From an uncultured archaeon (GTDB taxonomy: Archaea > Thermoproteota > Bathyarchaeia > Bathyarchaeales > Bathycorpusculaceae): DNA of 64,000 nucleotides. The stretch is taken from assembly GCA_963810275.1 (NCBI GenBank), contig CAWENF010000004.1, positions 1 through 64,000 of the forward strand. The letters run 5' to 3'. Positions within the stretch are counted from its first letter, which is position 1. Each line of letters opens with the position of its first letter. The position numbers and the translations under genes are program-made. The notes below the pieces were generated by a model that was not told where the DNA came from, did not search any database, and was given only the letters and a program-made list of their open reading frames with translations. Of this stretch, positions 36,971 through 48,856 are shown in pieces.

Positions 36971-39900
36971 ATGGCACAAACGGAAGAATTAATCCACAAA
37001 GTAGTAGATGAAATCTCGTTCGGCTTAATCTCACCCAAAGACCTCAGAAAACAATCTGTCGTAGAAATCCAAACTCCAGACACTTACGACGAAGACGGCG
37101 CACCCATCACTGCCGGCCTAATGGACGGCAGACTGGGCACACTTGAACCCCGCCAACGTTGCAAAACATGCGGCAACACCGCGATCCGTTGCCCCGGACA
37201 CTTCGGTCATATCGAACTAGCCGTACCAATCGTACACATTGAATTCACTAAAATCATCTTTGACCTCCTCAAATCCACCTGCCGGACGTGCGGACGCATT
37301 CTTCTCAGAGAAGAAGAAGCCAAAAAAGCATGCCAAAAAATTGAAAGATACAACGAGCTTTTGGGTGCAATTCCCGATGAAGTTTACAAAGAAATCATGA
37401 CTGACATCAAAGCCAAACAGTGTCCGTACTGCGCCGCAGCCCAATTCAAAATCACGTTTGAGAAGCCAACTAAATTCATCGAACAGACCGAATCAGGTTC
37501 TGAGCCGCTTACACCAAGCATGATTCGCGAACGCCTTGAACGTATCAGCGATGAAGACTTGGAAGTTTTGGGCTTCAACCCCAAAGTCGCACGGCCTGAG
37601 TGGATGGTTCTTCAGGTTTTGCCTGTTCCGCCAGTATATGTGCGTCCCTCAATCACTCTCGAATCAGGTATCCGTAGTGAGGACGACTTAACTCACAAAC
37701 TGGTTGACATCATCCGCATTAACCAGCGTCTCAAGGAGAACATGGAGGCAGGCGCCCCAACGCTTATCATCCAAGACCTCTCCGAGCTGCTCCAGTACCA
37801 CGTTACCACCTATTTTAACAACGAGGCCTCAGGTATTCCACCTGCACGCCACAGAAGCGGCAGAGCGCTAAAAACGATTAGTCAACGCTTAAAGGGTAAG
37901 GAAGGCCGATTTAGAAGCAATCTTTCAGGCAAACGTGTCGACTTCAGCGCCCGCACTGTAATCTCACCTGACCCTAACTTGGATATTAACGAGGTCGGTG
38001 TCCCCCGCGACGTAGCCATGCGCCTTAGTGTTCCAGAGAAAGTCACAGCTTGGAACCTTGAGGAAATGAAAAAACTCGTCGTCAACGGACCCGAAACCTA
38101 CCCAGGTGCGCTATACATAATTCGCCCAGATGGTAAACGTATTCGCCTCGAATTCGTCGTAGACCGCACAAAAATCGCTGAAGCAGTCGAACTCGGCTTC
38201 GTAGTTGAGCGCCACCTCAAAAACGGCGACATCGCAATCTTCAACCGTCAGCCCTCACTTCACCGCATGTCCATCATGGCCCACTACGTTAGAGTTCTGC
38301 CATACAAGACTTTCCGCATGCACCTCTGCGTCTGCCCACCATACAACGCAGACTTTGACGGCGACGAAATGAACCTCCACGTCCCACAAAGTGAGGAAGC
38401 CCGAACCGAGTCTTTGCTGCTTATGCAGGTGCAAGACCAAATTCTCTCACCTAGATTTGGCGGTCCAATCATCGGCGCCATCAGAGACTTCATTACAGGA
38501 GCATACTATTTCACTAAACGCGGTAACTACCTTACCCGTGGACAAGCTGATCGCATTCTAACAACCACTAGCTACCAAGGTGATTTGCCTGAACCCGAAA
38601 TCAAAGATCCCGAACCTCTTTGGTCAGGTAAACAAATCTTTAGCCTCTTCCTCCCTGAAACCTTGAACTACGTCCTTAAAGCCAATATTTGCCAAGGATG
38701 CAACAAATGCGAAGAAGAACTATGCAAACACGACGCCTATGTGGTCGTCAGAAATGGCCAACTCGTCAGCGGCATTATTGACCGTCGCAGCATCGGTTCA
38801 GAGCAGTCAGAAAGTTTGCTTCACAGAATTATAAAAGACTACGGCACACAGGCAGGCAGAGAATTCCTAAACAACATTACTCATATGCTCAAAACCTTCA
38901 TTTCGTTACGAGGCTTCAGCTACACCTATGACCAACTTGTCCTCTCGCCCCGCGCTCGCAACCGTATGGCAAAAACCATGGAACGAACTCAGAAGAAAAT
39001 CGATGAGCACATCGAAAACTTCCGAAACGGTACCCTGCCACGACTCCCCGGTCAGACCATGGAAGAATCCTTTGAGATTTACGTAATGCATGAGCTATCA
39101 ACCGCTCGTGACGAGTCAGGTAAGATTGCAGATGACGACTTTACTTTAGAGAACGCAGGCATCGTCATGACCCGTACAGGAGCAAGAGGCAGCAGTCTAA
39201 ACATCGGCCAGATGGCGGCTTGTGTCGGTCAGCAGTCAGTCCGTGGCAAACGTATCTTAAGAGGATACGCAGGACGCGCTCTGCCACACTTTGTTGCAAA
39301 CGATCCTCGCCCAAAAGCAAGAGGTTTTGTCTACAACAGTTACCAAACAGGCTTGGACGCAATAGAGTTCTTCTTCCACGCTATGGGTGGCAGGGAAGGT
39401 CTCGTCGACACAGCGGTCCGTACGCAGCAGAGCGGCTACATGCAGCGCAGGCTCATCAACGCACTTGAACACATCAGGCTTGAATACGACAGCACAGTTC
39501 GTGACAGCGCAGGCGACATTATCCAGTTCCGCTACGGCGAAGACGGCGTGGACCCTGCTAAAAGCGATCACGGCAAAGCAGTCAACGTCAGACGACTCAT
39601 TGACCAAGTTCGTTTAGGTGAAGAGAAAGGCGCCGAACCAGCCTCATTTGACTTTGTCAAGAAGCAACTCAAAAGTGTCGAAGGGCAAATTACTCCAATT
39701 CTGCTAGCACAGCTTAAACAGGGCTTCCAAAAATACAAACTCAGCGAGAAAGGCGTTGAGAAAGCCGTTACGATAACTGCCCAGCAGTACAAACGCGCTT
39801 TGATGGAGCCAGGCGAAGCAGTCGGTATCGTCGCAGCTCAATCAATCGGTGAGCCCGGCACTCAGATGACTCTTAGAACTTTCCACTATGCGGGTGTCAA

Positions 39901-40807
39901 AGAACAAAACGTTACCTTAGGTTTGCCTCGACTAATCGAAATTGTGGACGCCCGCAGAATTCCATCTACCCCAATTCAAACAATCTACCTAAATGGAGAT
40001 CACGGTAAAAGCAAAGAAGCCGCAGTCGAAGTAGCACGCAATATTATCTACACCAGTGTCGAGAACATTGCGTCAGCAATCTACGAAGACCCCGTCCGCG
40101 AAGAAATCATCATTGAAATCAGTAAACAAATGATGGACGACCGCAACATAACTATGGATGAACTCCGTGAACGCCTCGAGCTGCAAAACGCGACAGTTAC
40201 AATTACCGACACAACAGTTGAAATCAAACCCAAGAAAGTCGAACAAATTAAGCGTATGATGACTAAAATCCCAGGCTACCAAGTAAAAGGTGTTCCAGAC
40301 ATCAAACGTGTCTTGGTTACTGAGGAAAGCGGCGAATGGGTTATCCGTACTGACGGTTCTAACCTTGCAAAGGTATTGGAAGTTGAAGGCGTCGATACAT
40401 CACGCACAACCACCAACAACATCCACGAAATTGCCAAGACATTGGGCGTTGAAGCCAGCCGCAACGCACTGGTTAACGAAGCTAAAGGTGTGCTCGAAGA
40501 CCAAGGCTTAGACGTTGACGTCCGTCACGTGATGCTTGTTGCAGACATGATGACTACCACCGGAGACGTTCAGCAAATCGGTCGCCACGGCATCAGCGGC
40601 AAAAAAGCCAGTGTTCTTGCCCGCGCCGCATTCGAAATCACGGTTCCAAATATCGTTGAAGCAGCAGTGAAAGGTGAAAGTGATCCCTTAGCTGGAGTAA
40701 CAGAAAACGTTATAGTTGGGCAATCCATACCAATCGGCACAGGCTTAGTAGAACTCTACATGTCAACTTTCGAACGTCAAAGTAAAGATGGAGGAAAAAC
40801 AGAATAA
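36971..40807 (+). CDS. rpoA1: RNA polymerase subunit A, with A' and A'' fused in one ORF (Rpo1)
   Basis: NADFDGD catalytic motif and the A'' motif GEPGTQMT occur in the same 1278-aa ORF. Confidence 0.98.
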   Translation: MAQTEELIHKVVDEISFGLISPKDLRKQSVVEIQTPDTYDEDGAPITAGLMDGRLGTLEPRQRCKTCGNTAIRCPGHFGHIELAVPIVHIEFTKIIFDLLKSTCRTCGRILLREEEAKKACQKIERYNELLGAIPDEVYKEIMTDIKAKQCPYCAAAQFKITFEKPTKFIEQTESGSEPLTPSMIRERLERISDEDLEVLGFNPKVARPEWMVLQVLPVPPVYVRPSITLESGIRSEDDLTHKLVDIIRINQRLKENMEAGAPTLIIQDLSELLQYHVTTYFNNEASGIPPARHRSGRALKTISQRLKGKEGRFRSNLSGKRVDFSARTVISPDPNLDINEVGVPRDVAMRLSVPEKVTAWNLEEMKKLVVNGPETYPGALYIIRPDGKRIRLEFVVDRTKIAEAVELGFVVERHLKNGDIAIFNRQPSLHRMSIMAHYVRVLPYKTFRMHLCVCPPYNADFDGDEMNLHVPQSEEARTESLLLMQVQDQILSPRFGGPIIGAIRDFITGAYYFTKRGNYLTRGQADRILTTTSYQGDLPEPEIKDPEPLWSGKQIFSLFLPETLNYVLKANICQGCNKCEEELCKHDAYVVVRNGQLVSGIIDRRSIGSEQSESLLHRIIKDYGTQAGREFLNNITHMLKTFISLRGFSYTYDQLVLSPRARNRMAKTMERTQKKIDEHIENFRNGTLPRLPGQTMEESFEIYVMHELSTARDESGKIADDDFTLENAGIVMTRTGARGSSLNIGQMAACVGQQSVRGKRILRGYAGRALPHFVANDPRPKARGFVYNSYQTGLDAIEFFFHAMGGREGLVDTAVRTQQSGYMQRRLINALEHIRLEYDSTVRDSAGDIIQFRYGEDGVDPAKSDHGKAVNVRRLIDQVRLGEEKGAEPASFDFVKKQLKSVEGQITPILLAQLKQGFQKYKLSEKGVEKAVTITAQQYKRALMEPGEAVGIVAAQSIGEPGTQMTLRTFHYAGVKEQNVTLGLPRLIEIVDARRIPSTPIQTIYLNGDHGKSKEAAVEVARNIIYTSVENIASAIYEDPVREEIIIEISKQMMDDRNITMDELRERLELQNATVTITDTTVEIKPKKVEQIKRMMTKIPGYQVKGVPDIKRVLVTEESGEWVIRTDGSNLAKVLEVEGVDTSRTTTNNIHEIAKTLGVEASRNALVNEAKGVLEDQGLDVDVRHVMLVADMMTTTGDVQQIGRHGISGKKASVLARAAFEITVPNIVEAAVKGESDPLAGVTENVIVGQSIPIGTGLVELYMSTFERQSKDGGKTE

Positions 40808-41109
40808 TGATAGACATAGATAAAGCATTAGCGTCAGCAGTGAAAACTGGTAAGGTATCCTTCGGAGCCAACACCGCATTGCAGAACGCCAAAACCGGCA
40901 AAGCTAAGATGATAGTTTTAGCTTCAAACTGTCCAAAAGACATAAAAGAACAAGTTGAGTACTATGGAGAAATCTCCAAAGTCCCCGTTATTACATACAA
41001 AGGCACTTCAATTGACCTCGCTGAAGTCTGTAGCAAACTCTTCATCATCTCCGCTATGAGTATACGGGAAACAGGGGACTCTGAAATTCTCAAAGTAATC
41101 GATCAATAA
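40807..41109 (+). CDS. rpl30e: 50S ribosomal protein L30e
   Basis: VKTGKVSFG, ASNCP, GDSEIL; expected operon position. Confidence 0.96.
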   Translation: MIDIDKALASAVKTGKVSFGANTALQNAKTGKAKMIVLASNCPKDIKEQVEYYGEISKVPVITYKGTSIDLAEVCSKLFIISAMSIRETGDSEILKVIDQ

Positions 41110-41136: not shown

Positions 41137-41574
41137 CTGACATCTGGCATAAAGATTACCTGCGACGAAATGCGCTACATAGCCCTCTTTGAAAGCATAA
41201 GTGGAGCCAGCGTCAAAGACTGCATAATCGACGAAGAACAGGAACGAGCCATCTTCATAGTCAACCAAGGTCAAGTCGGCGTAGCGATAGGTAAAGGTGG
41301 ACGCAATATCCACACTCTTGAACGCATGACCGGCAAGAAACATGAAATCATTGAGTTCAGCGAGGACCCAGCTACATTCATGAAAAACGCTCTTAAACCT
41401 GCTGCAGTCAGAGAAATCCGCGTTAGCGAACGCACCGACGGTAAAAAGATGGCCGTAATAACTGTTAACCCTAAAGACAAGGGTGTCGCGATAGGTAAGA
41501 ACGGCAAGAACGCCGAGCGTTTGCGCTTTTTGGCAAAAAGGTACTTTGACATTCAGAACGTAAGCATCACCTAA
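41137..41574 (+). CDS. nusA: Archaeal NusA (KH domains); probable CTG start at 41137
   Basis: AIGKGGRN and AIGKNGKN. In-frame upstream (L)TSGIKITCDE follows GGAGG. Confidence 0.93.
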   Translation: MTSGIKITCDEMRYIALFESISGASVKDCIIDEEQERAIFIVNQGQVGVAIGKGGRNIHTLERMTGKKHEIIEFSEDPATFMKNALKPAAVREIRVSERTDGKKMAVITVNPKDKGVAIGKNGKNAERLRFLAKRYFDIQNVSIT

Positions 41575-42030
41575 GCCTACGCCGCACTGTCGGTTTGGCT
41601 AGGCGATGAAACGTCATTGAACGCAATATCATAGTAACAAGCCTGTTTCCTAAACCGTGAATTAGCTCTCTACTGTTTTAGCACGTGCCAGGTGATGTCG
41701 CTTTTTTTCATTTTACTCTTTTACATAATTAAACACATATGACGCAGTATCAAACACCTATTTTTAGCTGAAAATCTGAATTATTCGATTAATAAATATC
41801 ATTAAATGTGCCATTCAAGACCAGTTTTTCACTGTAGGTTTTGGATTTACAAAGTCTCCTGAAATAATGTTTTTTTTCCATAAACGAAGCAAATATCCAG
41901 TATTGTTTCCGTCTGTTTACCTTTTGTCAGCAATGTCTTATGAAATCTATACCTGACACATTTGAAAAAGAGGAAAGTTTAATACAAAAACACCTGCTAT
42001 TAACATTAGCTTGAAAGGTCGATAATTCAA

Positions 42031-42507
42031 ATGAAAACTGCGACAGTAATTTGGATTATTTTTGCAAGTATTTTTATAGGTATTTTCATAGTAGCAGGGC
42101 TCATATATTTTGAAGTGCCTTCCAAATTCGTGAATCCATTAAATGATGGGAATATAGTAATTAATTATCAGACAGAAAAAGTATCTCAGTATGAAGGCAG
42201 CTACATTATAGAACCAAAAGTTGGTTATACATTTTTGAAAGTGGACCTTTTTGTAGAGAACAATGGATACAACGAATTTTATTCAGGTTGTTTGAGTGAT
42301 TTGTCCTTAAATGCAGATAATGTAGAATATCATTGTTGTTCTCGGGTATCACACAATAATTACAATTTTCTTCCAACTACATTATCAAAGGGTGGTTCTT
42401 GGAATGGAACCATTGTGTATGAAATTCCAGCATATACATTAGAGTATTATTTGTATGTTAACGATCATTTGACTGATTATAAAATTGTGTTTAACTGTTT
42501 AGATTAG
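42031..42507 (+). CDS. Membrane-anchored DUF4352-like Ig-fold protein, AT-rich
   Basis: N-terminal TM, PKVGYTFLKVDLFVENNG, LSKGGSWNGTIVYEIP. Confidence 0.7.
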   Translation: MKTATVIWIIFASIFIGIFIVAGLIYFEVPSKFVNPLNDGNIVINYQTEKVSQYEGSYIIEPKVGYTFLKVDLFVENNGYNEFYSGCLSDLSLNADNVEYHCCSRVSHNNYNFLPTTLSKGGSWNGTIVYEIPAYTLEYYLYVNDHLTDYKIVFNCLD

Positions 42508-42691
42508 AGTGTATTTTGTCTGCTACGAATCCTTTCAGACGACGGTCAAACGTCTTGATCGCCGTAGCGATGGCCCCTTAAGGGTACCACGCACTCCTCC
42601 TCGACACAACGACAACTGGTCACCGAACAATTTGACCATCTATAAAAATATTAAAATAAATTCATTAAAAAAAGGAAAAAGCATCGTGCCT

Positions 42692-43081
42692 CTATACATG
42701 TAAAGTTACTTCTATGTTAGCACTTAAGGGAACATCGAAAGAGTTGCCATATAAGTAAAAGTCGGCATACGATGTAGCTACAATAATTGTAAATTCCATC
42801 GTAGAGTTCCAACTACCAGACGTAGTATCTTCATTTAGTGAAATTACAGCAGTTCCATTATCTTTTGTATTGACCCAACTAGTTTTAGCGGTAGCATCTT
42901 TCGGATTTGTTCCCTCGTAGAGCATAACATCAGCATCTCTGACAGGGTTACCTGTTGAATCCACAACTTTGACAAATACTTGGGCTTCTCTTGGTGTCAT
43001 AGCAGCAAGAACAGGTGCAACAATCGCAATCACTACTGAAATCGCCAGAAGTGCAGTAAGAGCTATTCCTATTTCTTTCAT
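42692..43081 (-). CDS. Secreted protein with a transthyretin-like/carboxypeptidase-regulatory domain
   Basis: Signal peptide, VKVVDSTGNPVRDADV, TKDNGTA. Confidence 0.65.
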   Translation of the reverse strand: MKEIGIALTALLAISVVIAIVAPVLAAMTPREAQVFVKVVDSTGNPVRDADVMLYEGTNPKDATAKTSWVNTKDNGTAVISLNEDTTSGSWNSTMEFTIIVATSYADFYLYGNSFDVPLSANIEVTLHV

Positions 43082-43463
43082 CTATTCACCCTCTAAGACG
43101 ATATTTCTCTAGTAATTGCCTATGCATTAAAGTGATATTCCAGAAATGGTAGTATATCTATTAGCTAATCTGAAATATCCTAAATCTATGCGGCAAATTC
43201 TCCTCGAGTTCGATATGCACTTAATCGCAATTTAGAAATCAACTGGTTCAGTTGAATGATTTAGGATTAGGCTGATCAGTAAAGAATTTTCTTTAAGGCA
43301 ATCGCCCAATAAATTAACTTTTTCAGGCACAGTAGAAACCCCTAATTCGCAATAAAAAAGAAAGGGATAAAAATTGCGAGAGATTTCGCCATTTTTCTCC
43401 GTTTTAGTTAAATAAGAGACTAATCCACTACTATTTTCTAACAATAGAGGCAAATAATTAATC

Positions 43464-45383
43464 ATGCTTATCCAGGAACTTATTGTCGAGAACTTTATGA
43501 GTTATGAGTACGCTCGCGTGCCATTTAAATCGGGCGTCAACATAATTGGGGGACCGAATGGTGCAGGCAAATCTAGTCTGCTACTTGCCATATCGGTGGG
43601 TTTGGGGCAGACCAGCACCGAGCGCAGCCGCAAACTTAGCGACCTAATCCGATGGGGCCAAGACCAAGCCCGCGTCACACTCATTTTAGATAATCAAAAA
43701 CAGGGTGCAAGAAGACCTGAACAAAAATACAACAAAGACCATCTCTTCCTAACACGGTTTTTGCGCAGAGACGGCAAATACTGGTTTGAACTCGAAAACA
43801 AAGTCGCCAGCAAACAGGACGTGGAACGCTTGTTGGGCAAGTTCGGTGTGGACCCAAACAATATGCTAATCATAATGCACCAGAATATGGTGGAACAGTT
43901 TAGTGTGCAAAGTAACGTCACCAAACTTCACATGGTAGAAGAAGCCGTGGGTTTGGAGCCTTTCCGCGAGAACGTTGTGCAAGCAAAAACAAAACTAACT
44001 CGCATCCTCACTCAGGAGGAATCTGTTGGGAAACTGCTTGAGCAGGCAGAGCAGACACTCAACTACTGGCGCGAGCAGTACGAGAAGTTTCAGGAGAAAA
44101 AGCAGCTTCAACTCAAACGACGTTTTCTTGACCGCGAATTATTATGGGCTGAGGTGGAACGACGAGAAACCATCGTAAAGGCGTTGCAGACTAACCATAA
44201 CAAGACGCAGGTTGCATTGGCTAAAATCGAGGACGAACGACAATCCCTAATTGGTGAGTTGGACGGGCACCAGACCCAGCAGAAGACGCTTCGCAGCCAA
44301 ATGCGGGGCTTGTTTGATGAGCGGCTGGATTTGGAGAGAAGAATCGCTCAGAACCAGTCGCAGTTTTCGCTCGTGGAGCAGTTGATATCCGAAGCCGAGA
44401 TGCTTGAAAAAGTCGTTGACACCAGCCTGTTTAAGCTGCTACGGGTTGATAGCCTGCGCGAAATGCTTGAGGTATCTCAAAAGCAAATAAAGACAACAAC
44501 AGAACAGATTCAGGATAACCAGTCCAAACTCCAAAAGCTGGAAACAAACACCGATAAAATTGCCGCTTACTCACTGGATAAACGGGTAACCATTGCCCTT
44601 TTAAATTTCCGCCGCGACCGAGCAGTAAAAGACCGTGAAAACACCGAAAAACAGCTAAAAGAGGTGCAGGACAACCTTGCCGCTGCAGTTGCAAAAGCAC
44701 AGGAATCGGGCGAACGCATAGCAGTGCTAAAATCCACCTCTGAAATCCAGGAGGAAATGGGCTTAACCGATGGCCACCTTCAAGCGTTGCAGGGTGTATC
44801 GGAGGAGATTGAGCGCCAATATGAGTCATACTCCAAACTGTATTTGGAGCTTAAGGAGAAGGCGCAGTTGGTGGCTGAGAACCGCGAGAAGACTCTTGAG
44901 GAAGTGAAGACTCGGTTTGTGGCTTGGCGCAGTGTTATGGAAAACCTCATTGACCGTGTGAATGTGGAATACCAGCGCATAATGAGCCAAACCCTTGCCA
45001 CAGGCGAGGTGTTACTGTCGAACCCTCAGGACATCGAAACTGCCGGGCTAGAAATCTATGTTGGCTTCAAAGGTAGCAAACCAGTCGCGTTGGACGCCTA
45101 CACGCAGAGTGGCGGTGAACGTACAACCGCTACCATGGGCTTTCTACTTGCTTTACAGCAGCATGTGCGTAGTCCCTTCCGAGCAGTGGACGAATATGAC
45201 ATCCACATGGACCCCAAAAACCGGGAAATGATAGCCAAAGTCCTTGTAGCAATTATTAAAGACGCTGCCTCGCAGTACGTCGTCATCACGCCCAGCCAAA
45301 TAACATTTGCCCAACGCGACGCAAACGTCATAACAGTGCAGAACTTGGAGGGCAAATCCGCAGTGCGCGAGGTGGTCAACTAA
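43464..45383 (+). CDS. Short SMC-family ATPase, SMC5/6-like (coalescin-type)
   Basis: ENFMSY, GPNGAGKSS, Q-loop MHQN, coiled coils, QSGGERT..LLALQ..SPFRAVDEYDIHMDPKNRE. Confidence 0.88.
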   Translation: MLIQELIVENFMSYEYARVPFKSGVNIIGGPNGAGKSSLLLAISVGLGQTSTERSRKLSDLIRWGQDQARVTLILDNQKQGARRPEQKYNKDHLFLTRFLRRDGKYWFELENKVASKQDVERLLGKFGVDPNNMLIIMHQNMVEQFSVQSNVTKLHMVEEAVGLEPFRENVVQAKTKLTRILTQEESVGKLLEQAEQTLNYWREQYEKFQEKKQLQLKRRFLDRELLWAEVERRETIVKALQTNHNKTQVALAKIEDERQSLIGELDGHQTQQKTLRSQMRGLFDERLDLERRIAQNQSQFSLVEQLISEAEMLEKVVDTSLFKLLRVDSLREMLEVSQKQIKTTTEQIQDNQSKLQKLETNTDKIAAYSLDKRVTIALLNFRRDRAVKDRENTEKQLKEVQDNLAAAVAKAQESGERIAVLKSTSEIQEEMGLTDGHLQALQGVSEEIERQYESYSKLYLELKEKAQLVAENREKTLEEVKTRFVAWRSVMENLIDRVNVEYQRIMSQTLATGEVLLSNPQDIETAGLEIYVGFKGSKPVALDAYTQSGGERTTATMGFLLALQQHVRSPFRAVDEYDIHMDPKNREMIAKVLVAIIKDAASQYVVITPSQITFAQRDANVITVQNLEGKSAVREVVN

Positions 45384-46208
45384 TGACGTCAAAAGAATCG
45401 CATGAGAAGCGTGTGGGCAAAGAGCGCCTGCAAGTTATCATCGACATGTGCACTGCGATTGAAACCCGTCAAGTTGATCCCTTCACGCTAAACGTTGACG
45501 ACATCATCGGTGTGGTGCAACAATATTTTCCTCACTGGAACCATCTTGAGGAGCTTAAACTCGACGCCGAAGCACTCCACCACCTTGCGTCTGTAGTGAA
45601 GATACAGAGCGAATGGGTTAAGCACCGCTCTACCTCACTCTACACCGACCCTTTTCTGCTGGAAGAGAAAGATTCGCCAGACCAGCAAGCAAGGAATGCT
45701 TGACGTGTTCGCCTCCGCTTGGACACCTCTGGTGGAGTCTGAGCAGCTCACCCTAAACGCTTTGTCGCAGGGTCTGTTGTACTGGGAGGCACTGCCGCCT
45801 TTGGGCAACCGCTGGAAAGACATCAACGTCTCCGCAGTGGATGCGGGGCAAGTTAGCCGCGATGAGTTGGTTAAGCAGCGGGTGTTGGGCGAACGCGAAT
45901 TCGGCGAGGAACTTGACTGCTACTGGCGCCAACTTAAAGACAAAGCGGCTGAGCACGGCGGAAAAATAGCGTATTGGGATTTTATCGGTGCTGCCACGTA
46001 TGAGGAGACGGTTCAACGTGCTTTTCTCACAGCTTTCCTAGTAACATATGGGTATGCCACGCTGGAAGTTGACAGACTCGAAGAAACTATCACAATCATT
46101 CCACTGGAAACCCCCAGAACCGAAGCCCTATCTGTGCAGTCAACCTCCGTCCCAATTGCGGTCTCGGTGGAGGACTATCAGAACTGGAGAGAAGGAAAAC
46201 AATCATGA
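45383..46208 (+). CDS. Kleisin-like (ScpA/Nse4-like) protein, one frameshift near 45668
   Basis: N-terminal VDPFTLNVDD and C-terminal wHTH YWDFI..TVQRAFLTAFLVTYGYATLE. ORFs join as EEKIRQTSKQGMLDV. Confidence 0.65.
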
Positions 46209-46816
46209 GTACCCGCAAAAAAGGAGTATATGCAGGCAAAATCAAAAAAGCCACTCAGATGCTGTTCTATAAGCGCCACGCTAAACCTGGCGTGAAGGGC
46301 TGGGAACTCCACAAGGCGCTGGGCAGCGATTACCCTAAGGTGCTTGACGTCTTGGATGATTACCTAAAACCGATGGATTTGCAGGTTAAAACCGTTTTTG
46401 AGGAGGAAAAAACCCCCGAGAAGCCATCGATGGAAGAGCTAGATACAGCCCGTTTCTTTATCGCCCTACGCGACGTGGCTACAAAGGACAAGTTGATGGG
46501 CTGGCGAGTTGATGACCTCGCAGGCTTAGCAGTCACAATAAGCTACATAGTCGCTAAAAAGGGTCAGGCGCCAAGAAAAGACGTCGAGAAGCTGTTGAGT
46601 GAGAAAATCGCTAACTGGAAAGTCGGCTTAAACCTTGACCGCTACATCCGAAACGGCTACCTATCTCAAGACGACAAAGGGCAACTGTATTTGGATTGGC
46701 GCACGCGGGCTGAGGTGGACCAGAAGAAACTGATTGACATGCTGCTTTCGGCCGAAAAACAGGGTTCTGCTAACGAGGCGGATGCCGGCTCCTCTGGTTT
46801 GGGCGCTGAAGACTAA
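46205..46816 (+). CDS. Tandem winged-helix kite-like (ScpB/Nse1/Nse3-like) protein
   Basis: 203 aa with two WH-like repeats and LDRYIRNGYL..LYLDWRTRAEV. Start overlaps the upstream stop (ATGA). Confidence 0.65.
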   Translation: MSTRKKGVYAGKIKKATQMLFYKRHAKPGVKGWELHKALGSDYPKVLDVLDDYLKPMDLQVKTVFEEEKTPEKPSMEELDTARFFIALRDVATKDKLMGWRVDDLAGLAVTISYIVAKKGQAPRKDVEKLLSEKIANWKVGLNLDRYIRNGYLSQDDKGQLYLDWRTRAEVDQKKLIDMLLSAEKQGSANEADAGSSGLGAED

Positions 46817-47685: not shown

Positions 47686-48171
47686 TTATTTTTGGTTTAT
47701 TGTTGTGGGTTCAGCAAAATACTTTGTTATCCACGTTTTGATTTCTTCCCTTGCTTTTCGGAAAGCTGCGAGCTTTTCTTCTTCGGAGCCCTCCACCTCT
47801 GAAGGATCAACAAAGCCGTGAACGATGTAATTTTTGGTTTTATGCAGCCTCGAAGTGATAATGGCGGGTTTTCCTACGGTCATGGGCGAGTTGCACAGGG
47901 CACAAAGTGTTTTAGCGCTGCTTTTACACACGGAGACGGCGAGATCAATTTCGGTCTCTCCGAATTCATCGATGCTTTTGGAGTACTGTTTCGAAATGTC
48001 CATGCCTATTTCTGCCATAACTGTCACGGCGAGGGGGTTGATTTGCGTGGGGCTGGTCCCAGCGCTGTACACGTTGTATTTGTCGCCAAAAACGTGGCGC
48101 AGAAGACCTTCTGCCATTTGAGAACGGGCAGAGTTGTGAGTGCAGATGAAGAGGATTTTGGTTTTACTCAA
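47686..48171 (-). CDS. arsC: Arsenate reductase, LMW-PTP family
   Basis: LFICTHNSARSQMAEG, SAGT, DP motif. Confidence 0.9.
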   Translation of the reverse strand: MSKTKILFICTHNSARSQMAEGLLRHVFGDKYNVYSAGTSPTQINPLAVTVMAEIGMDISKQYSKSIDEFGETEIDLAVSVCKSSAKTLCALCNSPMTVGKPAIITSRLHKTKNYIVHGFVDPSEVEGSEEEKLAAFRKAREEIKTWITKYFAEPTTINQK

Positions 48172-48180
48172 CGCTCATGC

Positions 48181-48462
48181 CTATGCTTTAGGCTTTAATT
48201 TGTCGATTAATGCTTTCGTTTCTTGTTCATCGGGGTGCGTGATGGCGCCAGCGGGGCAGATGGTTTCACACCCGTGGCAGAATACTACGCAGCGGTTGGG
48301 GTTTACTACAGTGCGTTTTTTTCCGTTTTGTTCTTCGGTTCGGAAGGCTTTGGTGTGGCAGAACTCTACGCATTTGCCGCAGGCGGTGCATTTAGCGGCG
48401 TCGATTTGGGGGTCCCATGGGATTTGGTTGCGGGGGATTCCTTGGTAGTGTGTTTCTGTCAT
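48181..48462 (-). CDS. 2[4Fe-4S] ferredoxin
   Basis: CTACGKCVEFC and CVVFCHGCETICP. Confidence 0.9.
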   Translation of the reverse strand: MTETHYQGIPRNQIPWDPQIDAAKCTACGKCVEFCHTKAFRTEEQNGKKRTVVNPNRCVVFCHGCETICPAGAITHPDEQETKALIDKLKPKA

Positions 48463-48482
48463 GTGTTTTTCACACACCTACA

Positions 48483-48518
48483 ATATTCATAACAACTTTT
48501 AAATATTGTTATAAATAT
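48483..48518. promoter_or_regulatory. Inverted repeat flanking the TATA box, putative ArsR operator
   Basis: ATATTCATAACAA-cttttaaata-TTGTTATAAATAT; 12 of 13 positions are complementary. Confidence 0.65.
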
Positions 48519-48520
48519 AT

Positions 48521-48856
48521 GTGAAAACCATGCCGTTAACAACCCAAAACCTAAGCCGCTTCAAAGCCAACATCCACCACGCCTTGGCCGACCCTATACG
48601 TCTCGAAATTCTCGCTTACCTTCGAGACGGCGAAAAATGTGTCTGTGAAATAGTGCCACATCTGGGTCTCGTTCAGCCTCTCGTTTCGAGGCACCTAAAA
48701 ATTCTCAAAGATGCTGGAGTGGTTAGCTGCCGAAAAGATGGAACAAAACGAATGTATGCCATAGTAGACCAACGAATATTCAATGCCATCGATGCATTAA
48801 CTCCGGAGCTAATGAGTGGACTGACAAAAGCAAAATTAGAAAATGTAATTCGCTAA
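48521..48856 (+). CDS. arsR: ArsR family repressor
   Basis: ALADPIRLEIL, EKCVCEI, SRHLKILK; divergent from ferredoxin-arsC. Confidence 0.9.
   Translation: MKTMPLTTQNLSRFKANIHHALADPIRLEILAYLRDGEKCVCEIVPHLGLVQPLVSRHLKILKDAGVVSCRKDGTKRMYAIVDQRIFNAIDALTPELMSGLTKAKLENVIR

Follow-up and report, generated by a model that had tools for sequence, protein, structure and literature searches.

A Bathyarchaeia operon encoding an SMC5/6-related ATPase of about half the canonical length with kleisin and kite partners

An operon in an uncultured archaeon of the class Bathyarchaeia (a stretch of 64,000 nucleotides, contig CAWENF010000004.1, hereafter the window) raises the question of which branch of the SMC superfamily a half-length ATPase partnered by kleisin and kite subunits belongs to, and how such a complex might work on shortened arms. 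Four plus-strand ORFs make up the operon (43464–45383, 639 aa; 45383–45703, 106 aa; 45696–46208, 170 aa; 46205–46816, 203 aa), the SMC and kleisin genes meeting in a TAATG overlap (45381–45385) and the kleisin and kite genes in an ATGA overlap (46205–46208). The ORF list and the sequence agree with an earlier note on this DNA, which had described a 639-aa SMC ATPase of about half canonical length coupled in this way to a kleisin-like and a tandem winged-helix gene. One extra A shifts the kleisin frame by +1, and the two middle ORFs are therefore a single kleisin gene. Upstream, a TTAAATA-like stretch lies ~55 nt 5′ of the SMC start codon and AGAGG ~14–18 nt 5′ of it, and this region possibly holds a promoter and a ribosome-binding site. 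The features are as follows.

43082..43463, + strand: upstream intergenic region, AT-rich as read from the sequence (GC 0.38 over 42001–44000)
43464..45383, + strand: SMC5/6-related SMC-type ATPase, 639 aa (Pfam SMC_N 1.2e-33, residues 3–625)
43464..43955, + strand: N-terminal half of the head, aa 1–164 (Walker A aa 30–37, Q-loop aa 138–142)
43956..44414, + strand: predicted ascending arm helix, aa 165–317 (AF2, block pLDDT mostly 84–93)
44415..44444, + strand: predicted arm tip loop, aa 318–327, 10 residues, at the hinge/hook position (AF2 pLDDT <50)
44445..44990, + strand: predicted descending arm helix, aa 328–509 (AF2; conserved breaks at aa 416–424 and 442–447)
44991..45380, + strand: C-terminal half of the head, aa 510–639 (SGGERT signature, Walker B/D-loop AVDEYDIHMDPKNR)
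45383..45703, + strand: N-terminal piece of the kleisin, family-like to the extra base at ~45668, then a short out-of-frame tail and a stop
45668..45670, + strand: frameshift site, AAA versus AA in relatives (DNA alignment with three relatives)
45671..46208, + strand: C-terminal piece of the kleisin in the +1 frame (ORF from 45696), Nse4_C-like winged helix
46205..46816, + strand: kite, 203 aa, tandem winged-helix of the Nse1/Nse3/MAGE type (AF2 pLDDT 73)

The ATPase motifs are intact (GPNGAGKS, MHQNM, SGGERT and AVDEYDIHMDPKNR), and the head motifs that had been singled out earlier (QSGGERT, LLALQ and SPFRAVDEYDIHMDPKNRE) are all found in the 639-aa ORF. Among its PDB matches, SMC6 and SMC5 chains take all of the first ten places (2.3e-27 to 2.1e-24), the best values being 2.3e-27 for SMC6 and 6.6e-26 for SMC5; Pyrococcus Smc (2.2e-24) and Rad50 (~1e-9) rank lower. 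Searches by phmmer with the head alone gave 36–68 bits (N-terminal half) and 38–72 bits (C-terminal half) against rows of SMC5/6 length, and 20–36 and 30–40 bits, respectively, against six canonical SMCs of the same order. The D-loop region reads DE[FY]D[VI]H[ML]DP.NR in the archaeal clade and DEFDVFMD..NR in SMC6; it reads DEINQGMDP.NE in SMC5 and DE[VI]DAHLDA.H in canonical SMC. An ITP motif after Walker B was considered as a mark of SMC5/6 and set aside, as the canonical SMCs of the order also carry it. Among family models, the protein scores 163.7 bits to TIGR02169 (cut-off 729.4) and 127.6 bits to TIGR02168 (cut-off 567.35).

A tree calculated under LG+C20 by quick search (67 rows, 320 columns; SH-aLRT supports) sets canonical SMC apart (96) and recovers an SMC5/6-like clan at 95, in which a eukaryotic SMC5 plus SMC6 group (89) is sister to a 36-row archaeal clade containing the window protein (88), the archaeal and eukaryotic groups lying together within a 56-row clade (99). 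Under LG+F+G4 (full run, with bootstraps) the outgroup, the genome's own Rad50-like protein, attaches by a very long branch inside SMC6; with canonical SMC as the root instead, the archaeal clade meets SMC5/6 at a node supported by only 51.4/49. Canonical SMC was sampled as six proteins of the order, SMC1–4, MukB and RecN being left out, and both trees separate it from the window clade; the exact sister position of the archaeal clade to eukaryotic SMC5/6 appears to be model-dependent. Head phylogeny had been proposed as a check on the SMC5/6 relationship, and by PDB ranking, phmmer and the trees the window heads group neither with Rad50 nor with canonical SMC.

The kite has no match at the sequence level in Pfam or the PDB, and its assignment comes from the AF2 model. 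Foldseek ranks chains of Nse1, MAGE-G1, MAGEA4 and Nse1–Nse3–Nse4 entries first (5.8e-5 to 3.2e-4), and the model also matches JetB (2.7e-4) and MukE. VIA-align gives Z of 10.7 for MAGE-G1, MAGEA4 and MAGE-A3, 10.5 for a chain of an Nse1–Nse3–Nse4 entry, 9.1–9.4 for MukBEF/MukEF entries and 8.2 for ScpB, the margin over generic winged-helix proteins being small (SarX at 9.7 versus MAGE at 10.7). In the Atlas, the named clusters closest to the kite are those of MAGE/NSE3 (score 0.92). The predicted fold is closest to that of Nse1/Nse3/MAGE, in keeping with the resemblance already seen in the tandem winged-helix gene, whose terminal LYLDWRTRAEV motif is present.

For the kleisin, Pfam Nse4_C matches the C-terminal piece at 1.7e-4 (22.2 bits, under the cut-off of 26 bits) and 17 of 18 orthologues (best 8.3e-6), although the scores of two of these proteins, at 22–24 bits, both lie under that curated cut-off. 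The best PDB match of the kleisin profile is EID3, a human Nse4 paralogue, in human SMC5/6 entry 9lwi (E 0.011), and in the Atlas a cluster of eukaryotic proteins with Nse4_C scores 0.91. Weakly but consistently, the kleisin thus appears Nse4-like, and the kleisin-like reading of the middle gene holds on matches that fall below thresholds. Partners devoid of kleisin and kite folds, an outcome that the earlier note had named as contrary to its proposal, were not what emerged: an Nse4_C signal and a MAGE/Nse1-type fold were found.

The most unusual part of the ATPase is the region between the head halves. These are 321 residues apart, and AF2 predicts an arm ~150 residues long whose two helices are joined by the 10-residue loop 318–327, confidence in the heads being low (pLDDT 40–60 in parts). 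No hinge is present in this model, no PF06470 match was obtained and the centre has no G/P-rich block; Pfam SMC_hinge is of no use as a test in this clan, being missed at E≤0.01 by a eukaryotic SMC6 (P0248) as well as by P0251 and P0246. The 639-aa protein contains no cysteine and hence neither a CxxC motif nor a zinc hook. The apex had been described as lacking both hinge and CxxC hook; loop and cysteine count bear this out, and the predicted hairpin takes the place of the normal hinge that would have spoken against the description. Conservation among 18 orthologues (mean share of the commonest residue) is high in the head (0.84 in its N-terminal and 0.78 in its C-terminal half) and in the head-proximal parts of both arm helices (0.83 for aa 165–235, 0.76 for aa 412–509, where the invariant residues of the descending helix include A412, G416, I428, S446 and E447), drops to 0.45 in the distal part of either helix and reaches its lowest value in the protein, 0.33, at the arm tip, residues 317–329 corresponding to 12–59 residues in the orthologues. 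The poor conservation and varying length of the tip argue against a specific tip-to-tip interface. A paired-copy prediction (two copies of residues 250–395) gave a median score of 0.40 against a mark of 0.42, with controls at 0.00, and speaks neither for nor against pairing.

The short SMC is no artefact: it is the natural length and the norm of the class. The best 120 database relatives measure 627–649 aa; the gene occurs in 36 of 41 genomes of the order, with frames of 640–762 aa where uncut by a contig end or internal stop and a conserved length of 638–690 aa across the order, and it was matched in 266 of 301 genomes of the class. Its partners travel with it. Among 31 relatives of the order the kleisin is found in all and the kite in 30, the remaining locus stopping at a contig end, and among 80 Thermoproteota loci the kleisin is found in 70, with kleisin and kite directly downstream in 65.

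Operons of this composition have precedents. Yoshinaga and Inagaki 2021 (PMC8665677) and van Hooff, Raas, Tromer and Eme (bioRxiv 10.1101/2024.01.07.573240) have published SMC5/6-related SMC–kleisin–kite operons from TACK and Asgard archaea, the latter describing the operon as SMC, Nse4-related kleisin and Nse1/3-like kite, and Yoshinaga et al, 2022 (PMC9389158) belongs to the same literature; the earlier note was right that the family is not wholly new. The lineages named by Yoshinaga and Inagaki (Bathyarchaeota, Thaumarchaeota, Verstraetearchaeota and Crenarchaeota; PMC8665677) correspond to the labels of the loci collected here (Bathyarchaeota/Bathyarchaeia, Thaumarchaeota/Nitrososphaeria, Methanomethylicia and Thermoprotei). 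Lineages, three-gene operon and a coexisting canonical SMC set all match the window, and with no difference in kind we class the window operon as a member. It very probably encodes the form that the published archaeal SMC5/6-related complex takes in Bathyarchaeia, consisting of SMC ATPase, Nse4-type kleisin and Nse1/Nse3-type kite; the three-subunit, SMC5/6-related system put forward in the earlier note is supported, none of the outcomes named against it having occurred. The half-length, hinge-less ATPase itself goes unmentioned in the main texts on these archaeal complexes that were searched, supplements apart, where the word hinge is confined to general introductions. Yoshinaga and Inagaki took out coiled-coil columns by hand (PMC8665677).

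Three other accounts of the locus compete with this assignment. The operon could be decaying in this strain, with the frameshift at 45668–45670 a true mutation, the kleisin split or unmade and the complex non-functional. The assembly does carry the extra base, as the earlier note had suspected (an indel at 45668, which alignment with three relatives resolves to one extra A in the run), and broken copies of operon genes occur in other MAGs: an SMC in two pieces with two TAA inside one (G011), degraded extra fragments (G010), an SMC in two frames (G206) and a C-terminal SMC fragment alone, adjoining its kleisin (G322). Yet neither the SMC nor the kite gene of the window is broken, both sharing 87% identity with the nearest relative, and the kleisin is a single frame of 269–288 aa, free of the extra A, in all 31 relatives examined. 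None of the public sequencing runs contained half or more of the sampled words; two of four runs cover the site, and both of their contigs lack the extra base, with 1–3 other letter differences from the window over 159–309 bases. One-base errors in short A runs are a common fault of assemblies. We therefore regard decay as unlikely. The extra A most likely arose in assembly, or else as a mutation that is very recent and private to the strain, and we do not count it as a feature of the system; if it is real, the strain has no intact kleisin.

An SMC-based defence against plasmids or phages, of the Wadjet/MksBEFG or Lamassu kind, could be argued from the JetB and MukE matches of the kite model and from generic ATPase matches in PADLOC (mad3 4e-24, LmuB 4e-18, JetC 2.7e-5). 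A Pfam scan of the neighbouring genes, in agreement with the earlier note, returned no JetD/MksG-type nuclease or other effector, and no mobile-element genes: the neighbours encode DUF4352, DUF7382/Ig-like, LMW phosphatase (ArsC-like), ferredoxin and ArsR regulator proteins, plus a 193-aa membrane-like ORF without family assignment. Kleisin and kite have no PADLOC match, the ATPase reaches only 63.9 bits with LmuB, far below its 163.7 with TIGR02169, and the SMC is highly conserved and near-universal in the class while its chromosomal contexts vary between relatives, all of which leaves defence very improbable. Scarcely less improbable is a repair tether of the Rad50/RecN/ASRP type, in which two rods joined at their tips would hold DNA ends together, with no relation to the two genes downstream. 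RecN, Rad50 and ASRP (ClsN/Sph) combine heads with a shorter coiled coil and no SMC hinge, and a protein of ~640 aa with a short arm and no hinge resembles the build of RecN and ASRP; a CxxC-bearing paralogue without adjoining kleisin or kite genes also falls in the same clade. Most ASRPs carry a zinc hook, according to PMC8665677. The window SMC, similar in build, has no cysteine with which to form such a hook, and it scores far under the cut-offs of the ASRP (NF045487, 57.9 against 300), best Rad50 (74.3 against 700) and RecN (TIGR00634, 24.4 against 407.85) models; its kleisin and kite partners are translationally coupled and co-conserved in the 65 of 80 loci across the phylum.

Returning to the SMC5/6-related complex, a working scheme can be drawn by analogy with the solved SMC5/6, Smc–ScpAB and MukBEF structures. 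Two copies of the ATPase would engage head-to-head on ATP; one kleisin would link the two copies, binding one at its neck and the other at its cap, and a kite dimer would sit on the kleisin, all together clamping DNA atop the heads. The kleisin-binding neck and the joint would be carried by the conserved head-proximal 70–100 residues of both arm helices, and the variable distal arm, ~22 nm in all, would end in a plain loop, so that a hinge-sealed SMC ring could not close. The complex may then take the form of an open V that heads and kleisin hold together, or of a rod whose tips are loosely joined.

The same genome encodes other SMC-family proteins. Its canonical SMC (1184 aa, contig C14) scores 700 bits to TIGR02169 and has ScpB just downstream, no ScpA being found with the Pfam ScpA model; its Rad50-like gene carries CPLC. 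A search of this genome, which is 92.6% complete, returned one SMC5/6-like gene in addition to the canonical SMC. Elsewhere, nested within the short-form clade, is a paralogue that has long arms and a centred CxxC motif; this C(D/E)(K/R)CG form lies away from kleisin and kite genes, and at least one genome encodes it in addition to the short operon. The centre of a further protein (P0179) is homologous to the SMC hinge, so hinge-bearing relatives exist. We tentatively suggest, as a possibility that we would not yet favour, that the hinge-less short form is the standard SMC5/6-related build across Thermoproteota, a head-and-kleisin clamp on 22-nm arms with no sealed ring, and that its tip is plastic: the hinge would have been lost along with two thirds of the arm, and one Bathyarchaeia sub-lineage would have re-lengthened its arms and gained the C(D/E)(K/R)CG zinc-hook-like motif. 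Nothing relevant on a zinc hook in SMC5/6-related, archaeal SMCs stood among the literature matches listed. If this is true, hinge, hairpin and hook would form a natural series inside one SMC lineage.

Comparison with better-known complexes shows what the archaeal version shares and what it dispenses with. The window heads best match chains of eukaryotic SMC5/6 (7qcd, 7tve, 8i13, 9lwi) and have a D-loop signature in common with it, as do the partners an Nse4_C-type C-terminus and a MAGE/Nse1-type fold. Eukaryotic SMC5/6 has two SMC subunits, whereas the single SMC gene of the operon presumably yields a homodimer and not an SMC5/SMC6 heterodimer; there is one kite gene where the eukaryotic complex has two, and the arm spans ~150 residues, with no hinge, against ~350. 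Smc–ScpAB (TIGR02169; Pyrococcus Smc 5xei) likewise combines ABC-type SMC heads, kleisin and kite, but the window SMC lacks the hinge, scores far under the TIGR02169 cut-off and belongs to a separate clade. Another natural SMC clade without a hinge, here compared by description only, comprises the ocean-metagenome "hinge-less" homologues, described as a bacterial clade branching in Actinobacteria, with neither kleisin nor kite discussed (PMC12153180); this was the one pertinent paper among the literature matches listed for hinge-less SMCs.

The window operon adds one more copy of a published operon type, and its middle gene probably contains an assembly error. No eukaryotic SMC complex is less well understood than SMC5/6, for which the archaeal relatives offer natural minimal models; a short-armed, hinge-less, presumably homodimeric version with three subunits asks which activities (DNA clamping, translocation, loop extrusion) need a closed ring and long arms. 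Hosts in culture or with complete genomes, such as Ca. Methanosuratincola, carry the operon, and the question is therefore testable.

The operon is compact, its ATPase stop overlapping the kleisin start (TAATG at 45381-45385) and the stop of the 170-aa kleisin ORF overlapping the kite start (ATGA at 46205-46208):

43464-45383, plus strand, SMC-type ATPase ORF, 639 aa
45383-45703, plus strand, kleisin ORF, N-terminal piece, 106 aa
45696-46208, plus strand, kleisin ORF, C-terminal piece, 170 aa
46205-46816, plus strand, kite ORF, 203 aa

All sequence motifs quoted in the earlier note were found in the window, whose genome comprises 28 contigs and 2.26 Mb and is 92.6% complete; public records name close homologues of the 639-aa protein Candidatus Bathyarchaeota. 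The 5′ neighbours are rpoA, L30e, a NusA-type KH protein and then two small secreted or membrane-like ORFs (DUF4352; DUF7382/Ig-like), and the 3′ neighbours a membrane-like ORF without assignment, an LMW phosphatase, a ferredoxin and an ArsR regulator; as claimed previously, no nuclease is found among them on either side. PADLOC returned generic ATPase matches only for the ATPase and zero matches for the kleisin and kite. We also observe that rpoA, usually split into A′ and A″ in archaea, is here a single unsplit 1278-aa frame (36971-40807), followed by L30e (40807-41109) and the NusA-type KH protein (41170-41574), and that 47686-48856 holds a small arsenic/redox-type cluster:

within 47686-48856, minus strand, LMW phosphatase, ArsC-like
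within 47686-48856, minus strand, 4Fe-4S ferredoxin
within 47686-48856, plus strand, ArsR-family regulator, divergently transcribed

The ATPase matches Pfam SMC_N over almost its full span (1.2e-33, residues 3-625), and SMC is its nearest NCBIfam family, yet far under all cut-offs. In a search of all PDB chains, SMC6 and SMC5 take the first ten places (2.3e-27 to 2.1e-24), followed by Pyrococcus Smc heads (2.2e-24) and Rad50 (~1e-9). The two head halves were also scored separately.

Scores of the ATPase against NCBIfam families (bits, then cut-off)
TIGR02169 (SMC): 163.7, 729.4
Rad50: 74.3, 700
ASRP: 57.9, 300
RecN: 24.4, 408

Scores of the head halves (N-head, then C-head, bits)
SMC5/6-length rows: 36-68, 38-72
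six canonical SMCs of the same order: 20-36, 30-40
the genome's Rad50-like protein: 18, 3

The protein keeps its ATPase motifs intact (GPNGAGKS, MHQNM, SGGERT, AVDEYDIHMDPKNR), and the residues after Walker B differ by group, reading DE[FY]D[VI]H[ML]DP.NR in the archaeal clade, DEFDVFMD..NR in SMC6, DEINQGMDP.NE in SMC5 and DE[VI]DAHLDA.H in canonical SMC of the order; this stretch bears out the mixture of SMC5-like and SMC6-like signatures that had been read in the head. An ITP motif was dropped as a mark of SMC5/6, canonical SMC having ITP too.

The head-domain phylogeny proposed in the earlier note was built from 67 rows of a set of 93, omitting five representatives without a C-head match, five with a partial N-head and 16 short forms (the ~640-aa hinge-less ATPases of this clade) removed by thinning. 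The rows comprise the window protein, 33 short representatives, six long ones (relatives with longer arms), 19 proteins of 1024-1328 aa (nine of them named: five SMC5, one SMC6 and three from fungi or yeast named without a subunit), one Odinarchaeota protein, six canonical SMCs and the Rad50-like protein. Under LG+C20 (a quick search, with SH-aLRT support only), canonical SMC is separate (96) and the remaining rows unite in a single clan (95); the 36-row archaeal clade with the window protein (88) has eukaryotic SMC5 plus SMC6 (89) as its sister, both lying inside a 56-row clade (99). With LG+F+G4 and 1000 bootstraps, the 36-row clade (93.6/97) and canonical SMC (100/100) are again recovered, the Rad50-like row joins within SMC6, and the node uniting the archaeal clade with SMC5/6 reaches only 51.4/49. 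Canonical SMC thus stands apart in both trees and the exact SMC5/6 sister node is model-dependent; the heads therefore agree with the published SMC5/6 placement, without adding strong evidence of their own that the two groups are exact sisters.

The genome also encodes a canonical SMC of 1184 aa that scores 700 bits against TIGR02169, and ScpB lies directly downstream. The gap of ~850 bases between these two genes (contig C14, 92320-93167) has the length expected of a kleisin gene; no Pfam ScpA match accompanies this set at E <= 0.001.

The kleisin of the operon is weakly Nse4-like by sequence. Against Pfam Nse4_C (cut-off 26 bits), the C-terminal piece in the window scores 22.2 bits and the closest orthologue with an unbroken gene 23.9; the model matches 17 of 18 kleisin orthologues (best 8.3e-6). 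The best PDB chain for the 18-sequence kleisin profile is EID3, which we take to be an Nse4 paralogue, in the human SMC5/6 entry 9lwi (E 0.011), and in the Atlas the closest named clusters carry Nse4_C, one of them eukaryotic (score 0.91). These modest matches agree with one another and with the earlier description of the second gene as kleisin-like.

The split of this gene could reflect either a fault of the assembly or a mutation that arose very recently. Aligned at the DNA level with three relatives, the window carries one extra A in the run 45668-45670, the indel already suspected there; the first frame follows the family sequence 5′ of the extra A and the +1 frame follows it 3′. In all 31 relatives with loci read (19 from the same genus, 12 from other families of the order) the kleisin is a single frame of 269-288 aa. 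The extra base is missing from the contigs of both public runs that cover the site (two of four runs, with one contig each, at depths of 4.4 and 6 and with 1-3 other differences from the window), so that the break is private to this assembly. The split is hence most likely an assembly fault, and we consider it unlikely that the extra A is a true mutation.

The kite shows no match to Pfam or PDB at the sequence level. Its AF2 model (pLDDT 73) contains two winged-helix domains. In Foldseek, chains from the Nse1, MAGE-G1, MAGEA4 and Nse1-Nse3-Nse4 complex entries score best (5.8e-5 to 3.2e-4), with Pyrococcus ScpB and JetB at 2.7e-4 and MukE at 2.7e-3. VIA-align ranks MAGE-G1, MAGEA4 and MAGE-A3 first (Z 10.7, second domain, rmsd 2.3-2.5), then a chain of the Nse1-Nse3-Nse4 entry 7dg2 (Z 10.5, both domains) and 7tve_C from a yeast SMC5/6 core structure (Z 10.4, both domains), ahead of the generic winged-helix regulator SarX (Z 9.7), MukBEF and MukEF entries (Z 9.1-9.4) and ScpB (Z 8.2); the closest named Atlas clusters are MAGE/NSE3 (0.92, 205 shared features). 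The predicted kite fold of the 203-aa protein is secure on this model, and its likeness to Nse1/Nse3, noted previously from the sequence, is upheld in that Nse1/MAGE chains lead the structure matches; a kite of Nse1/3 flavour is thus likely, by small margins.

The ATPase gene is widespread, occurring in 36 of 41 genomes of the order (E <= 1e-20; frames of 640-762 aa for matches uncut by a contig end or internal stop) and in 266 of 301 genomes of the class (E <= 1e-40; 166 of 189 when only high-quality genomes are counted, 97 of 109 by genus). Among the class matches listed (150 of 388), frames are mostly ~620-760 aa, shorter ones being split or cut genes. Among 1.84 billion representatives, 127 reach E <= 1e-30, the full-length ones mostly of 540-690 aa. 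With a long relative as query, we fetched 80 loci from named genomes (labelled Bathyarchaeota/Bathyarchaeia, Nitrososphaeria, Thaumarchaeota, Methanomethylicia/Methanomethylicota, Hecatellales, Geothermarchaeales, Thermoprotei and a few others); a kleisin directly follows the SMC gene in 70 and kleisin plus kite in 65, a contig end cutting four of the five kleisin-only loci. The short form with both partners is therefore the usual build across Thermoproteota. Broken copies occur in other genomes: in G010, fragments of a second SMC copy lie downstream of an intact operon (contig C16, 1408-2584, minus strand; internal TAG, TGA and TAA stops, at most 84% identity to the window C-terminal head), and the SMC gene is broken in G011 (two pieces, two TAA within one) and G206 (two frames).

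The ATPase was said to carry neither a hinge nor a CxxC hook, and we reach the same result. Only 321 residues separate the head halves, a G/P-rich block is absent from the centre, and the protein has no cysteine whatsoever. In an AF2 model built from an 18-row alignment (mean pLDDT 76.6, ~90 in the arm, heads poorly resolved), arm helix 1 (residues 165-317) is joined by a 10-residue tip loop (318-327, pLDDT <50) to a return helix (328-509) that is briefly interrupted at 416-424 and 442-447. Across 18 orthologues, the mean share of the commonest residue is 0.78-0.84 in the heads and 0.76-0.83 in the head-proximal arm, falling to 0.45 in the distal arm and 0.33 at the tip, where the stretch varies from 12 to 59 residues. 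This variability argues against a specific dimer interface at the tip; the conserved head-proximal arm would fit a kleisin-binding neck and joint.

The arm tip differs between relatives of the ATPase. In P0179 (982 aa), at the base of the 36-row archaeal clade, the central block is homologous both to the hinge that Pfam recognises in the related protein P0214 (iE 5e-10) and to the middle of a fungal row of the SMC5 clade (1e-4), which argues that a hinge was once present in the lineage and lost in the short forms. Judged from sequence, short forms would thus descend from hinge-bearing ancestors by one or several losses; the short P0180, which branches beside P0179 with weak support in both trees, bears on their number. 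A different tip is seen in long representatives P0136, P0137 and P0149 (1016-1047 aa), which carry C(D/E)(K/R)CG exactly at the coil centre and nest among short forms with P0128 and P0131 (100 under LG+C20, 100/100 under LG+F+G4). The motif recurs in the cut representative P0188 and at three named Bathyarchaeota loci, complete CxxC long forms measuring 1016-1067 aa:

L057, 1657-4860, long CxxC form
L059, 2941-6057, long CxxC form
L060, 1-2424, long CxxC form

Motif and central position suggest, by analogy with Rad50 and ASRP, a zinc hook. No kleisin or kite adjoins the CxxC gene at these three loci; the L057 genome has a short operon and a long CxxC form together, and a CxxC paralogue was not found with the query used in the window's own genome. 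The best NCBIfam ASRP alignment of P0136 falls in its CxxC-bearing centre (residues 341-676; 85 bits overall, profile 137-443 of 593), which could reflect coiled-coil likeness alone or mean that the inserted arm has an ASRP-like origin.

Archaeal SMC homologues of Crenarchaeota, Verstraetearchaeota, Thaumarchaeota and Bathyarchaeota are described in the main text of Yoshinaga and Inagaki (PMC8665677) as adjoining SMC5+6, in trees from which coiled-coil columns had been taken out; the term "SMC5/6-related SMC in Archaea" appears in Yoshinaga et al. 2022 (PMC9389158), and van Hooff et al. (bioRxiv 10.1101/2024.01.07.573240) describe an SMC5/6-related complex in which the kleisin is Nse4-related and the kite Nse1/3-like. 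Main-text passages of these three papers contain general descriptions of "hinge" only, leave a missing hinge unmentioned, and hold nothing relevant under "shorter" or "truncated" on the archaeal SMC5/6-related SMC; supplements may record lengths. "Hinge-less" SMC homologues of a bacterial ocean clade are reported in a 2025 paper (PMC12153180), so SMC-family proteins that lost their hinge in nature are already in print for another lineage. The finding of the earlier note is real and was correctly read, the operon being an ordinary member of the published archaeal SMC5/6-related complexes, and the absence of a hinge is a genuine trait of the family as a whole that has been under-described.
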